DNA of 64,000 nt, taken from the NCBI RefSeq assembly GCF_003018255.1, contig NZ_CP027440.1; one strand, written 5' to 3'. The notes under the pieces were generated by a model, which worked only from the letters and a program-made list of their open reading frames with translations, did no database searches and was not told the DNA's origin. Position numbers and translations under genes: made by a program. The first letter of the stretch is position 1. Each line of letters starts with the position of its first letter. This document shows, in pieces, positions 21,009 to 46,063 of the stretch. Origin of the DNA: Escherichia coli (GTDB lineage: Bacteria > Pseudomonadota > Gammaproteobacteria > Enterobacterales > Enterobacteriaceae).

Positions 21009-21129
21009 ATTGCCTCCGTATAAAATATGAATATAAAATAAGCAGGCGGTCAGTGTACGCTTAACTGGTAAAGTCGGTGCCTGCCTCCGGGTGGATCATG
21101 TATGCGGGTTCGACCCCCGCCACTGACCG

Positions 21130-26281: not shown

Positions 26282-26572
26282 TTACCCCCTTGCGCGTGGT
26301 TTCTTCACACCCGGAACGCTGGCGCGACCTTCCGCCACATCCTGACCCCGGCCGGTCAGTTCGGCGATGAAATAACCGTTAACGAGCGTGCGCTTACGCA
26401 CCAGTCCCTGCTCGGCAAGCCAGGCAATGTGGGTGTGAACGGTGTCGCGGGACACGCGGTGGCCGTAATCATCCAGACAGTCCTGGAGCACGGATTCACC
26501 CAGTTCACCGTTGTAATCTGCCAGCGACCGCAGAATGACCAGACGCTGATCTTCAGTAATGAAATCACTCAT
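26282..26572 (-). CDS. Hypothetical protein (Mu gp26-like)
   Basis: 96-aa ORF coupled to terminase genes. Confidence 0.5.
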   Translation of the reverse strand: MSDFITEDQRLVILRSLADYNGELGESVLQDCLDDYGHRVSRDTVHTHIAWLAEQGLVRKRTLVNGYFIAELTGRGQDVAEGRASVPGVKKPRARG

Positions 26573-26877
26573 TGCGTTTTTTTCCTTACAGCCTGCTCCA
26601 GCAGCAGTTCGTTCTGATAGGAGACAGAGCGGAGCGTGGCGTTCGTGGTTTTCAGTTCACCCCGCAGGGTCACGATTTCCACATTCAGACGGTTGACCTC
26701 GGCTTCTGTCGGCAGTGACGACAGGCGGGTTTCCACCTTCTCAACGCGGTCGGAGAGTTTTTCAAAGGCCTCGCGGGGGACAAACGTTTTGCGCATCAGC
26801 GCCATGAATATCCCGCCAGCGGTTGCCGTCGCCGAAAGGATCGGCACAACATAATCTTTAACGATGCTGACCCACAT
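26569..26877 (-). CDS. Membrane protein (Mu gp25-like)
   Basis: N-terminal TM helix followed by coiled coil. Confidence 0.5.
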   Translation of the reverse strand: MWVSIVKDYVVPILSATATAGGIFMALMRKTFVPREAFEKLSDRVEKVETRLSSLPTEAEVNRLNVEIVTLRGELKTTNATLRSVSYQNELLLEQAVRKKTQ

Positions 26878-27151
26878 GACGGGCCTCCATGATGTTCTGG
26901 CAGTTCACACAACGGATGGCATCCGGCACAGCAACAAGACGTGCGGCGGGGATCTCTCCGCCACAGTCCGCGCAGACACGTCTGCCCGGAGCATCCATTG
27001 CCCGGCGCTTACGTGTCAGCCGGTTACAAAGGGCGCGTTCTGATCCCCGCTCCATCACAGCCTGAGCACGATCTGAATCATCCATACCTTTTTCCTTACT
27101 TCGTCTTTCCTGCCGGAACAGCAGGCGTTCCGGCCATATCAGTAAATTCAT
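26858..27151 (-). CDS. TraR/DksA-family C4 zinc-finger protein
   Basis: CADCGGEI...RCVNCQ C4 motif. Confidence 0.65.
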   Translation of the reverse strand: MNLLIWPERLLFRQERRSKEKGMDDSDRAQAVMERGSERALCNRLTRKRRAMDAPGRRVCADCGGEIPAARLVAVPDAIRCVNCQNIMEARHVGQHR

Positions 27152-27467
27152 GTTGTCGCCGCGCCTCCAGACGACGAATACTGGCCTTGTCCACGTTGCA
27201 GTTCTTGATCACCGCCAGCAGTTGCAGGTTGTAAGTGACCGATGCCCCAAACGTGAACGGCTCCGGCGCAGGAGGGACCAGGCAGTCAGCCAGCCATTCA
27301 GCGGGGATCGGCACCGGCTTCACAGGCACGTATTTCACAGACGGCCCGGCGCACCCGATCAGCCACATCATCAGGAACAGGGGCAGAGGCCGCAGGCACT
27401 GCCGCCAGCGACCGGCGGACAACGCTCTGCTGCCCCTCGCTGTGCTGAATGTTCTGTTGTTTTTCAT
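27096..27467 (-). CDS. Putative o-spanin (Rz1-like lipoprotein) embedded in i-spanin frame; start uncertain
   Basis: Frame contains LFLMMWLIGCAGPSVKYVPVKPVPIP: lipobox LIGC followed by Pro-rich region. Confidence 0.4.
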   Translation of the reverse strand: MKNNRTFSTARGSRALSAGRWRQCLRPLPLFLMMWLIGCAGPSVKYVPVKPVPIPAEWLADCLVPPAPEPFTFGASVTYNLQLLAVIKNCNVDKASIRRLEARRQHEFTDMAGTPAVPAGKTK

Positions 27468-27819
27468 TCGTGGCCGCCTCACTGATTTGTGAAATGAGTT
27501 GCAGGGTGTGCTGCTGATTTGCCAGCACCTGACGCGCCTCATCCCGCTCACGCACAAGCACCTGATTATTGTCTTCAAGGCGCTGCGTCTTCTGGTGCAT
27601 TCCCCATATAGCGGCAACCAGTACAGCGATAATCCCCAGCGCCGCCATGCACGCCCCGGCAATCAGGGCCGGTAAGGCATTATTCACCGCAGCCACAGGA
27701 CACCCCGTAACAGCAGTACCGCACACAGCAGCGCTATCATGAGCGGTCGCCAGAAGCGGTTCAGACTTTCGGCAAGTCGTAGCGACATAACCATTCATCC
27801 GCCGAACGGCGGGCCTCAA
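27298..27819 (-). CDS. Putative i-spanin (Rz-like); true start probably downstream of track start
   Basis: TM segment LPALIAGACMAALGIIAVLVAAIWG followed by coiled coil; directly after endolysin. Confidence 0.55.
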   Translation of the reverse strand: MRPAVRRMNGYVATTCRKSEPLLATAHDSAAVCGTAVTGCPVAAVNNALPALIAGACMAALGIIAVLVAAIWGMHQKTQRLEDNNQVLVRERDEARQVLANQQHTLQLISQISEAATNEKQQNIQHSEGQQSVVRRSLAAVPAASAPVPDDVADRVRRAVCEIRACEAGADPR

Positions 27820-28261
27820 GGCCGGGGAGTTTCACCCCCTTTGAATAAATCCAGCGGATATACTGCTTACAGGACGCGGGCATCTGCCCGGCATTGATCA
27901 GGCGCAGAAGCGTGGAGTTGCGAAAGTTCGTTTCACCGGCCCAGAAGATCCACGAAGCCAGCGCCACCGTCTGACCACGGGTAAGCGGCACCTGAACACG
28001 CCGATCAATGGCCGCAAAGGCCCATTTCATGTCCTTTTCCAGTAGTTCCAGGCATTCTTCATCTGTCAGGGTCATACCCGGTTTCACATCCGGGCCGGTA
28101 TGGCCGTAACAGATGGTGGGTGTACCGGAGGGATCGATATACGTGGAGTTTTCTTTCCCTTCCCAGTAACCGGTGTAATGCGTGGCAATCGTGAACGTCC
28201 CGGCACCGGCCAGAACAAGGGCAATCAGCTTTTTACGCAGTGGTGCGGGGAGTTTTGGCAT
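27761..28261 (-). CDS. lys: Endolysin (lysozyme) with SAR-type N-terminal signal anchor
   Basis: 166 aa with N-terminal LIALVLAGAGTFTIA hydrophobic segment as in Mu SAR endolysin. Confidence 0.85.
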   Translation of the reverse strand: MPKLPAPLRKKLIALVLAGAGTFTIATHYTGYWEGKENSTYIDPSGTPTICYGHTGPDVKPGMTLTDEECLELLEKDMKWAFAAIDRRVQVPLTRGQTVALASWIFWAGETNFRNSTLLRLINAGQMPASCKQYIRWIYSKGVKLPGLEARRSADEWLCRYDLPKV

Positions 28262-28332: not shown

Positions 28333-28758
28333 TCAGAAAAGTGGCGGTTGCGTTCTTGCCAGATGCAGACGGCGCTGTTCGCGTATGACGGTATAAATCT
28401 GGGTTTCTGACATCCGGTAATGGCGGCGAAGGGATTCAATTTTCTCGCCCCGGTCCCAGCGCGAAAATATCTCATTGTTTCGCAGCTCGGCAAAGAGAGA
28501 TTCCCCGACCGGCAGGTAATAACCCCGTCCGCCCATATAGGCTGCCTGAGCCGCAGCCACCTTGCGTGCCAGTTTACCGGCCAGTACCGGCTCAATCCCC
28601 TGACGCTGAAGTTCTGCGCCGGTGACTTCAACCAGTTCTGACAGGGTCCGCGGCCAGTTCTTTTTGAGAACATCATCAGGGATGTCATCAAGGCGGTCGA
28701 TAAGGGCGTGCAGTTGCTCACTGTCACCACCAAACATGCTCATCTGAGTTTCTGCCAT
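28333..28758 (-). CDS. Mor/C-family transcriptional activator
   Basis: 141 aa with C-terminal HTH; resembles Mu Mor. Confidence 0.8.
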   Translation of the reverse strand: MAETQMSMFGGDSEQLHALIDRLDDIPDDVLKKNWPRTLSELVEVTGAELQRQGIEPVLAGKLARKVAAAQAAYMGGRGYYLPVGESLFAELRNNEIFSRWDRGEKIESLRRHYRMSETQIYTVIREQRRLHLARTQPPLF

Positions 28759-28827
28759 ATCAGCCTCCGGTTCTCGCGTTCCCGGTAAGTTTAAAATAAA
28801 AATCCCGCGTTGTGGCGGGATTTGGAG

Positions 28828-44435: not shown

Positions 44436-46063
44436 CTGTTCGACCTCTCCCCGTCCCAGGGTATCTGGACAAAAAATTGTGTGAAAATCCCGGGTTCCGA
44501 TTCCACGGCGATGCTGCCGCCGAGATTTTCTACCTGTTGTTTGACAAGTGCTAAACCGACGCCTCGCTCGCTTCCTTTTGTCGAGACACCTTTGTCAAAA
44601 ATGTGATCGATTTTGTCGGGTGCGATCCCCGGTCCATCATCGTTAACTTCGCAGTGCAGCCAGCCGTGACGGTAGTGCAATGTTACGCTAATTTCGCCAC
44701 CGGGTTCCGGTCCTAATGCCTCCAGCGCGTTTTCTATCAGATTTCCCAACGTGGTAATCAGCGTCGCGACCTGATCCTCACTACCGCTGTCTGGCAGCTG
44801 GCTTTCACTGTTTAAAATCAGCGTATGGCCTAAATCGGTCGCGCGGTTAATCTTGCTGATTAAAAAACCAGCGATAACCGGAGATTTGATCTTACCCAGC
44901 AGAGAGCCAATCTCTTCCTGATAGTTATTGGCTGTTTTGAGAATGTAATCTTCCAACTGCTTATAACTCTTCAGATGCAATAATCCGAGAATCACATGCA
45001 ATTTATTCATAAATTCGTGGGATCGTTCACGAAGTGCGTCAGCATAGTTGACCAGACCGTCGAGTCGCTGCATCAGTTTACGTACTTCAGTTTTGTCCCT
45101 GAAGGTTGAAATGGCACCGATGATAACGCCATTACTGCGCACCGGAACGGTGTTGATCAGTAATAGTCGGTCCTTAATCGTAATCTCTTCGTCGCGGCGT
45201 GGAGTACCGTCGCGTAACACTTCCGAGACATCTACCACCTGTGACCACGAGTGGCTTAGCGTCGACAGTTTCTCATCGTCCTGCGACTTACGGTAATTCA
45301 GCAATTCTTGTGCGGCATCGTTGATCAGCGTGACTTCACCGCGATCGTCCACGGCAACGACGCCTTCTTTGATAGACTGCAACATGGCCTGGCGTTGCTC
45401 AAACAGCGTGGAGATTTCGTAGGGTTCCAGGCCGAAAAGGATTTTTTTCAGTACTTTAACCAGAATGCAGGTGCCGATCAGCCCGACCAGCATGCCAAAT
45501 AATACCGACCAGATGATGCTCCAGCGACTGTCATTGATCTGTTGGGTCACGCGACTTAACTCAAGGCCGATCGCCACCACGCCAATTTGTTTATGATTTT
45601 CATCGTAGATGGGGGTAAATACGCGTAAAGCCTGCGCCAGAAAACCGCGATTGATAGCGACATTTTCTTCGCCATTCAGCGCTTTAAGGATGTCATCACC
45701 TTTAAATGGCTGACCAATACGCTGGGCTTCAGGATGCGAGTAGCGAAGACTTTGCATATCGGTAACGACAATAAACAGCAGATCGTTGCGTTTGCGCACG
45801 GCTTCCGCGATGGCCTGGATTCCACTCTCCTGTGGTTTTTTCTGCAAGCCCTGACGGATTTCCGGCGAGTCGGCGAGGGTACGCGCTACTGCCAGTGCCT
45901 TGTTAGCTAGCCCGTCTCGCGTCATATCACTGATTTGCGAGAAGTAAATCAGATGCACCACCAATAGCACCGAGAACAGTACCGCGCTGACCATTAAGAT
46001 CACTGTGGTACTCAATTTCATCGGACGTTTGCGTAACATGCGGTAGGGCAATGAATGTCTCAT
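44432..46063 (-). CDS. dcuS: Sensor histidine kinase DcuS
   Basis: 543 aa, TM plus periplasmic domain plus kinase. Confidence 0.9.
   Translation of the reverse strand: MRHSLPYRMLRKRPMKLSTTVILMVSAVLFSVLLVVHLIYFSQISDMTRDGLANKALAVARTLADSPEIRQGLQKKPQESGIQAIAEAVRKRNDLLFIVVTDMQSLRYSHPEAQRIGQPFKGDDILKALNGEENVAINRGFLAQALRVFTPIYDENHKQIGVVAIGLELSRVTQQINDSRWSIIWSVLFGMLVGLIGTCILVKVLKKILFGLEPYEISTLFEQRQAMLQSIKEGVVAVDDRGEVTLINDAAQELLNYRKSQDDEKLSTLSHSWSQVVDVSEVLRDGTPRRDEEITIKDRLLLINTVPVRSNGVIIGAISTFRDKTEVRKLMQRLDGLVNYADALRERSHEFMNKLHVILGLLHLKSYKQLEDYILKTANNYQEEIGSLLGKIKSPVIAGFLISKINRATDLGHTLILNSESQLPDSGSEDQVATLITTLGNLIENALEALGPEPGGEISVTLHYRHGWLHCEVNDDGPGIAPDKIDHIFDKGVSTKGSERGVGLALVKQQVENLGGSIAVESEPGIFTQFFVQIPWDGERSNR

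Follow-up and report, generated by a model that had tools for sequence, protein, structure and literature searches.

In this work we have analyzed the lysis region of a Mu-like prophage carried on a stretch of 64,000 nucleotides of Escherichia coli DNA (contig NZ_CP027440.1 of RefSeq assembly GCF_003018255.1; called the window below, with all positions numbered within it). We hold with high confidence that the two genes following the endolysin gene lys encode a two-component spanin of the overlapped type, the outer-membrane-disruption module of the late lysis cassette. All genes of the cassette lie on the minus strand. The inner-membrane subunit (i-spanin, 132 amino acids, GTG start) is encoded at 27298..27696, and the lipoprotein subunit (o-spanin, a precursor of 123 amino acids) at 27096..27467, in the +1 frame relative to the i-spanin gene. 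An earlier, sequence-only reading of the region had placed a two-component spanin pair downstream of an endolysin of the signal-anchor-release (SAR) type; this was borne out by matches to protein families, homology to gp23 and gp23.1 of phage Mu and purifying selection in both frames. The pair as such is already known: it is an ordinary module of a characterized family, resides in a well-known type of prophage and is present in RefSeq with faulty starts.

Overlapped arrangement of the spanin genes

Spanin genes have been classified by Kongari et al. (2018, PMC6139136) as embedded when the o-spanin gene lies wholly within the i-spanin frame, and as overlapped when it starts inside this frame and extends beyond it. 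In the window the o-spanin gene has its start within the i-spanin gene and its end 202 nt beyond that of the latter, so that by this definition the pair is of the overlapped class, like those of Mu, SfV and P2, the last being the prototype of this architecture (PMC6139136). The segment of 170 nt read in two frames (27298..27467) encodes the C-terminus of i-spanin and, in the +1 register (27696 - 27467 = 229 = 3 x 76 + 1), the o-spanin signal peptide together with the first 17 mature residues. Both maximal open reading frames (ORFs) on which the sequence-only reading was based, 27298..27819 for i-spanin (stop codon 27300-27298) and 27096..27662 for the lipoprotein (stop codon 27098-27096), exist as it described them. 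The starts of both genes had been called unclear on account of an overlap with lys. The maximal i-spanin ORF does overlap lys, but the lipoprotein frame does not reach it, and comparison with diverged relatives has largely settled both starts, at GTG 27696 and ATG 27467.

The o-spanin and its lipoprotein signal

The o-spanin scored 59.9 bits (E = 2.4e-16) with the Pfam profile LysC (PF23793), whose curated gathering score is 27. The match covers positions 1-67 of the 69 in the profile and begins at the lipobox (residue 34 of the 123-amino acid form). PHROG 3001 was matched at 8e-42; a scan of NCBIfam gave no match for either spanin. With the Pfam and PHROG matches, chance is excluded for the +1-frame lipoprotein. 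The lipoprotein signal was judged by rules applied to the sequence only. The predicted signal peptide (residues 1-38) is composed of an n-region with a charge of +7, the h-region PLPLFLMMW and the lipobox LIGC (27362..27351), which conforms to the pattern [LVI][ASTVI][GAS]C and is followed at position +2 by Ala instead of Asp. The codon of the putatively lipidated Cys39 occupies 27353..27351. Around the lipobox the precursor reads MKNNRTFSTARGSRALSAGRWRQCLRPLPLFLMMWLIGC followed by AGPSVKYVPVKPVPIPAEW, i.e. LFLMMWLIGC stands directly before AGPSVKYVPVKPVPIPAEW. The mature part of 85 amino acids has 10 Pro among its first 32 residues, in agreement with the earlier description of a Pro-rich lipoprotein with lipobox LIGC in another frame. 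Two periplasmic cysteines, C62 and C90, are kept among the relatives, and the part past the i-spanin gene carries the conserved LysC core (FGASVxYNLQLL...NCNVDKA).

For the comparison with relatives we used haplotypes from E. coli genomes (L005-L009) and IMG/VR (L010-L067), contigs with 47-50% identical i-spanins (L034-L038) and Citrobacter braakii (L072). The ATG 38 codons before the lipobox Cys was retained in all 27 distinct haplotypes, and so was the lipobox L[ITS][GA]C (as LIGC, LTGC, LSGC or LTAC); an (A/G)AGG motif 9 nt upstream of this ATG is likewise kept by all of them. Since the i-spanin residues overlapping the ATG vary among haplotypes (N/D/H and E/A), it is for its own sake that the codon is maintained. 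Phages SfV and Mulock have curated o-spanin starts that align to the same ATG, with the Cys likewise at position 39. We therefore regard ATG 27467 (27467..27096, 123 amino acids) as the best model, largely settled by these alignments. TTG 27422 (Cys24; 108 amino acids) would fit the PROSITE length rule better, but it is disfavoured, since L034 and L035 have no start codon at this position and ATG 27467 is present in all haplotypes; a start at ATG 27371 or 27368 (MMWLIGC) was discarded because it leaves neither an n-region nor an h-region. The sequence-only reading had named as the finding that would speak against it the lack of a predicted lipoprotein signal with any choice of start. This was not what we found: with both ATG 27467 and TTG 27422 a positively charged n-region is followed by a hydrophobic core and a lipobox of canonical form.

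The i-spanin

The i-spanin matched PHROG 214 ('Rz-like spanin') at 1.6e-32, and precomputed matches list PF10828/DUF2570 for it; our own Pfam scan returned nothing above threshold, only a sub-threshold Tetraspanin match that was taken as noise. A transmembrane (TM) helix is predicted at about residues 7-32 (27678..27601), within the N-terminal hydrophobic segment IAGACMAALGIIAVLVAAI, whose Kyte-Doolittle maximum reaches 2.64 (residues 9-27 of the 129-amino acid form). The AlphaFold2 model, built from an alignment of 31 homologue sequences (mean confidence pLDDT 91.8), consists of a helix at 4-98, comprising the TM and periplasmic parts, and another at 109-128, joined by a short hinge about a near-invariant Pro. 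The N-terminal TM segment and the helical periplasmic domain by which an i-spanin is recognized are thus both predicted for this protein. As to the earlier description of an ORF with a TM segment and a coiled coil, the TM segment and the helical domain found support, and the helices may form a coiled coil.

GTG 27696 is preceded by a common GGGG(TG) Shine-Dalgarno-like motif and aligns with an ATG start in L034, L035 and L072. Among 30 i-spanin homologues, 27 start within a few residues of this position, just before the TM segment. The next candidate, GTG 27687, is lost in L009, which has GTA there, and the i-spanin frame upstream of 27687 evolves neutrally, with a ratio of nonsynonymous to synonymous polymorphism (pN/pS; Nei-Gojobori counts over haplotypes) of 1.57. 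On this comparative evidence GTG 27696 (27696..27298, 132 amino acids) is the best start model and may be taken as largely settled.

Coding constraint in the two frames

Constraint on codons was found in both spanin frames. In the part belonging to i-spanin alone, pN/pS was 0.25 in the i-spanin frame and about 1.5 in the off-frames; in the part belonging to o-spanin alone it was 0.20 in the o-spanin frame, the strongest constraint recorded, and about 1.4-1.5 in the off-frames. Within the overlap the constraint is partitioned: over the signal-peptide codons the values were 0.47 for the i-spanin frame and 1.37 for the o-spanin frame, and over the first mature o-spanin codons 1.01 and 0.53, respectively. 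These haplotype comparisons show that both frames are coding, and the partitioning matches the report that i-spanin C-termini are the variable partner in such overlaps (PMC6139136).

Relation to characterized spanins

The closest characterized system is that of phage Mu, whose genes 23 and 23.1 have been identified as encoding the i- and o-spanin; an amber allele of 23.1 gave the spherical-cell phenotype of spanin mutants and was complemented by lambda Rz/Rz1 (Chamblee et al. 2022, mBio, PMC9239132). In BLASTP the o-spanin of the window is 42% identical to gp23.1 over 67 amino acids (E = 2e-14; core PPxPxPxTxGAS...L...CNxDKAS), and the i-spanin 27% identical to gp23 over 118 amino acids (E = 2e-7). 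The place in the late operon is also the same (C/Mor, SAR endolysin, i-spanin, o-spanin overlapped in +1, zinc finger, DUF2730 releasin). The sequences have nevertheless diverged widely. The signal peptide of the Mu o-spanin is short and conventional (Cys29, LTGC), as against 38 residues here, the ATG of gene 23 overlaps the lys stop region, and no small ORF with a TM segment lies between lys and gene 23.

The likeness to P2 LysB/LysC was drawn through the Pfam profile LysC, which the o-spanin matches end to end, lipobox included. Across the whole precursor the o-spanin is 37-38% identical to SfV Rz1 and to the o-spanin of Klebsiella phage Mulock, and all three share a long, positively charged n-region and Cys at position 39. 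Both of these layouts are overlapped too, by 182 nt in SfV as compared with 170 nt here. The i-spanins of SfV and Mulock, on the other hand, are only 21-27% identical to that of the window, and these lambdoid phages have a holin gene upstream, whereas the cassette studied here follows the Mu pattern, with a DUF2730 releasin and no identified holin. Lambda Rz/Rz1 belongs to the same functional class, an i-spanin of the inner membrane together with an o-spanin, a lipoprotein of the outer membrane, in the +1 frame, but no sequence-family match of our pair to it was found. Rz1 lies wholly within Rz, and the mature o-spanin has 40 amino acids in lambda (PMC6139136) as against 85 here.

A small ORF between lys and the i-spanin gene

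Between lys and the i-spanin gene lies an ORF of 36 codons (27684..27794, minus strand; start at ATG 27794 or ATG 27788) encoding a peptide predicted to span the membrane once (MVMSLRLAESLNRFWRPLMIALLCAVLLLRGVLWLR). It shares 34 nt with the 3' end of lys and 13 nt with the start of the i-spanin gene, and its translation is entangled with that of both neighbours. The frame is open in 23 of 23 intact haplotypes, including C. braakii and relatives with 47-50% identical i-spanins, and the peptide is well conserved (…WRP[LV]M[IV]x[LV]LCxVLLxRGVLWL) where the TM segment of the neighbouring i-spanin cannot be aligned. Synonymous exchanges, e.g. CTG to TTA, are seen among the relatives. In the 21 codons free of lys, pN/pS was 0.42 in this frame versus 0.88 and 2.38 in the other two, and pairwise Fisher tests for an excess of synonymous changes gave p = 0.002 and 0.013. 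The lys Leu codon that supplies the internal ATG of the small ORF is TTA or CTA in 22 of the 23 haplotypes.

The ORF is present in Mu-like prophages of E. coli, Shigella and Citrobacter; Mu and L038 lack it and have a direct overlap of the lys stop with the i-spanin ATG. A pattern-limited scan of genome contigs found it only in C. braakii, which is not a measure of its true distribution. No family in Pfam, NCBIfam or PHROG matched the peptide, its exact sequence in the window was absent among some 15 billion public proteins, and a literature search for the peptide string found it in no paper of the searchable library. RefSeq/PGAP does not call the ORF on this DNA; sporadic calls exist only for a variant, under the name 'Uncharacterised protein [Shigella sonnei]'.

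From the pattern of substitutions the ORF is probably a real gene for a small membrane protein. That it provides a genuine inner-membrane peptide, and with it an undescribed fourth membrane component of a holin-less lysis cassette of the Mu type, is a tentative suggestion for which we would claim rather low confidence. Possible roles include those of a minimal depolarising or pinholin-like trigger, of an antiholin-like timer, and of a cofactor for the DUF2730 releasin or the SAR endolysin, or an antagonist of either. A relic of an older i-spanin N-terminus was considered as well, but purifying selection on the frame and the lack of similarity to i-spanin N-termini led us to reject this idea.

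In one IMG/VR contig, L015/L060 (IMGVR_UViG_2526164665_000023), the GAAAG run where lys ends, at about 27768, contains one additional A, by which the lys frame is fused to the TM part of the small ORF. Mutation or sequencing error is the probable cause. Programmed -1 frameshifting that would fuse Lys to this TM segment was also considered and discarded: a slippery heptamer is lacking, and the site reads CCGCAGTCT in diverged relatives.

Alternative readings of the locus

The sequence-only reading had taken the lipoprotein gene to be embedded in the manner of Rz/Rz1, i.e. to be contained in full in the i-spanin gene. It is true that the i-spanin ORF includes the lipobox and the Pro-rich N-terminal portion of the mature protein, but the reading frames themselves refute this layout, as the lipoprotein frame stays open for 202 nt after the i-spanin stop codon; moreover, it is this distal part that holds the LysC core and is the most constrained, and the homologues in Mu, SfV and Mulock are overlapped as well. 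We consider an embedded pair extremely improbable. Hardly more credible is the view that the +1 lipoprotein ORF is open by chance, so that only i-spanin, or only the signal-less LysC of 80 amino acids annotated by PGAP, is real. This GC-rich region does contain many long ORFs in alternative frames, PGAP starts LysC downstream of the Cys, and pN/pS of the o-spanin frame rises to 1.37 in the signal peptide. Relaxed constraint is, however, normal for signal peptides. The Pfam LysC profile begins at the lipobox, and every haplotype preserves the ATG, the Shine-Dalgarno motif, the spacing of 38 residues and the lipobox despite the varying i-spanin residues; furthermore, the outer membrane would be beyond the reach of a spanin subunit that has no lipoprotein signal (PMC6139136).

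Somewhat less improbable, though still unlikely, is a longer i-spanin starting at GTG 27726 (142 amino acids, as in PGAP) or at ATG 27798 (166 amino acids), with the 36-codon ORF not being a gene. The i-spanin frame is open back to 27819, ATG 27798 is the sole ATG upstream of the TM segment, and public gene callers most often report the 142- or 166-amino acid forms. Set against this, upstream of 27687 the neutral value of the i-spanin frame (1.57) contrasts with 0.40-0.42 in the frame of the small ORF, 27 of the 30 family members have only 107-135 amino acids and start a few residues before the TM segment, L034, L035 and L072 have an ATG exactly at the position of GTG 27696, and the PHROG 214 match starts at residue 54 of the 166-amino acid form (profile position 16).

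The overlapped spanin pair with starts at GTG 27696 and ATG 27467 thus remains the reading that we prefer, and some observations weigh against it in its details. The proposed i-spanin start is a GTG behind a modest Shine-Dalgarno motif, and the i-spanin start chosen by PGAP varies with the strain among 27726, 27696 and 27648. Cys39 of o-spanin exceeds the 35-residue limit of the PROSITE lipoprotein rule, owing to the long signal peptide; the same is true of SfV, Mulock and all relatives. Finally, an intermolecular disulfide of the lambda kind is not assured on the i-spanin side, as judged from its periplasmic cysteines: of the two at the C-terminus (AVCEIRACEAG, 27301-27360) some E. coli variants have Gly in place of one, and the relatives with 47-50% identity have neither (compared in L008, L009, L034 and L035). 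As C62 and C90 of o-spanin are kept, any disulfide-linked dimerisation would be confined to the o-spanin side.

The lysis cassette and its prophage

The spanin genes stand within a lysis cassette, next to the endolysin gene upstream and a gene for a DUF2730 releasin homologue downstream. The order Mor/C activator, lys, i-/o-spanin, TraR/DksA zinc finger, DUF2730, gp26-like, gp27, terminase is that of the late lysis region of Mu. The lys product (27761..28261, minus strand; 166 amino acids) is a muramidase of family GH24 (PF00959 at 8.4e-37), 39% identical to Mu gp22, and aligns over its full length, including the N-terminal SAR domain, to phage 21 R (PDB 3HDE/3HDF, 2e-24). Its N-terminus is MPKLPAPLRKKLIALVLAGAGTFTIATHY; the segment LIALVLAGAGTFTIAT is weakly hydrophobic (Kyte-Doolittle only 1.39) and preceded by RKK, basic residues directly before the SAR domain being kept. 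The catalytic residues, assigned by reading the sequence as E34/D43/T49, are spaced as in phage 21 R. With a weakly hydrophobic, Gly/Ala/Thr-rich N-terminal domain on a muralytic enzyme and homology to proven SAR endolysins, lys can be assigned to this class on sequence grounds.

Directly upstream of lys, at the position of the Mu late activator C, PGAP annotates a transcription activator of the Mor/C family (28333..28758, minus strand). Downstream of the spanin genes are a gene for a TraR/DksA-type C4 zinc-finger protein (26858..27085, minus strand; PGAP start 27085; TIGR02419 at 1.4e-21, PF01258), which takes the place of Mu gene 24 by position alone, and one for the DUF2730 protein (26569..26877, minus strand; PF10805 at 7e-20). 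The latter combines a TM segment at the N-terminus with a helical domain in the cytoplasm and is 34% identical (E = 5e-18) to the Mu releasin gp25, whose function has been described (PMC9239132). No terminator-like sites were found between the cassette genes, the sole minus-strand match (26965-26942) lying inside the TraR coding sequence. Upstream of the cassette, between a gp16-family gene and the Mor/C gene, there is a terminator-like hairpin followed by a T-run (AAATCCCGCCACAACGCGGGATTT TTATTTT; 28800-28823, minus strand).

The element carrying the cassette is a Mu-like (Sp18-type) E. coli prophage of 38.8 kb. Its extent (159-38999) was set by identity to the copy in E. coli strain War (99.99%), and the boundaries are approximate; only this interval is shared, the flanks of the window differing from those of War. 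In strain War and in two Shiga toxin (Stx) phage records the same Mu-like element is inserted inside a lambdoid prophage, in War splitting the portal gene. The flank of the window at about 45000-45560 resembles a sensor kinase gene, and a 'tRNA-OTHER' is annotated by PGAP at 21049-21128 (plus strand) between the head-morphogenesis and virion-morphogenesis genes of the prophage. The lysis region occurs at an identity of at least 90% in 230 of 5,426 complete E. coli genomes (O157:H7 and other Shiga toxin-producing E. coli account for many of the 230) and also in the two Stx-phage records, where it is labelled 'inserted Bacteriophage Mu-like phage'; a tblastn search of a phage collection with i-spanin gave matches only in these two records. 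The Mu-like prophage Sp18 of O157 Sakai has been predicted to be intact (PMC2669165).

Proposed course of lysis and significance

By analogy with Mu, the SAR endolysin would be exported in a membrane-tethered, inactive form, from which the DUF2730 releasin would release it. The i-spanin would be a type II inner-membrane protein with an N-terminal TM anchor and a periplasmic helix-hinge-helix, and the o-spanin, made with a long signal peptide of the Sec/Lsp type, would be lipidated on Cys39 of LIGC and, because Ala instead of Asp follows at +2, sorted to the outer membrane by the Lol pathway. The two are expected to bind through their C-terminal periplasmic parts into a complex spanning the periplasm; that both subunits would be needed and that the complex would bridge this space is suggested by homology to Mu gp23/gp23.1 (PMC9239132). 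With the peptidoglycan broken down by the endolysin, this complex would either fuse the inner with the outer membrane or disrupt the two, which would bring lysis to completion.

The practical consequence concerns annotation. On identical DNA the product names in RefSeq are 'endopeptidase' and 'Rz1-like lysis system protein LysC', and PGAP starts LysC at GTG 27338 (80 amino acids), downstream of the lipidated Cys, so that the annotated product is devoid of a signal peptide. This start is the standard annotation across hundreds of E. coli genomes, whose deposited LysC proteins are without their defining signal; o-spanin versions of 72, 80, 91, 108, 123 and 148 amino acids are held in public databases. 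Wrong spanin starts are a systematic class of error documented by Kongari et al. (PMC6139136). The corrected coordinates are 27696..27298 for i-spanin and 27467..27096 for o-spanin.

For the pair itself little is at stake, as it is a textbook spanin module, and the small ORF alone merits experimental follow-up. It may be new, and is a candidate for an extra regulator of a lysis system which, in the case of Mu, does without a holin.

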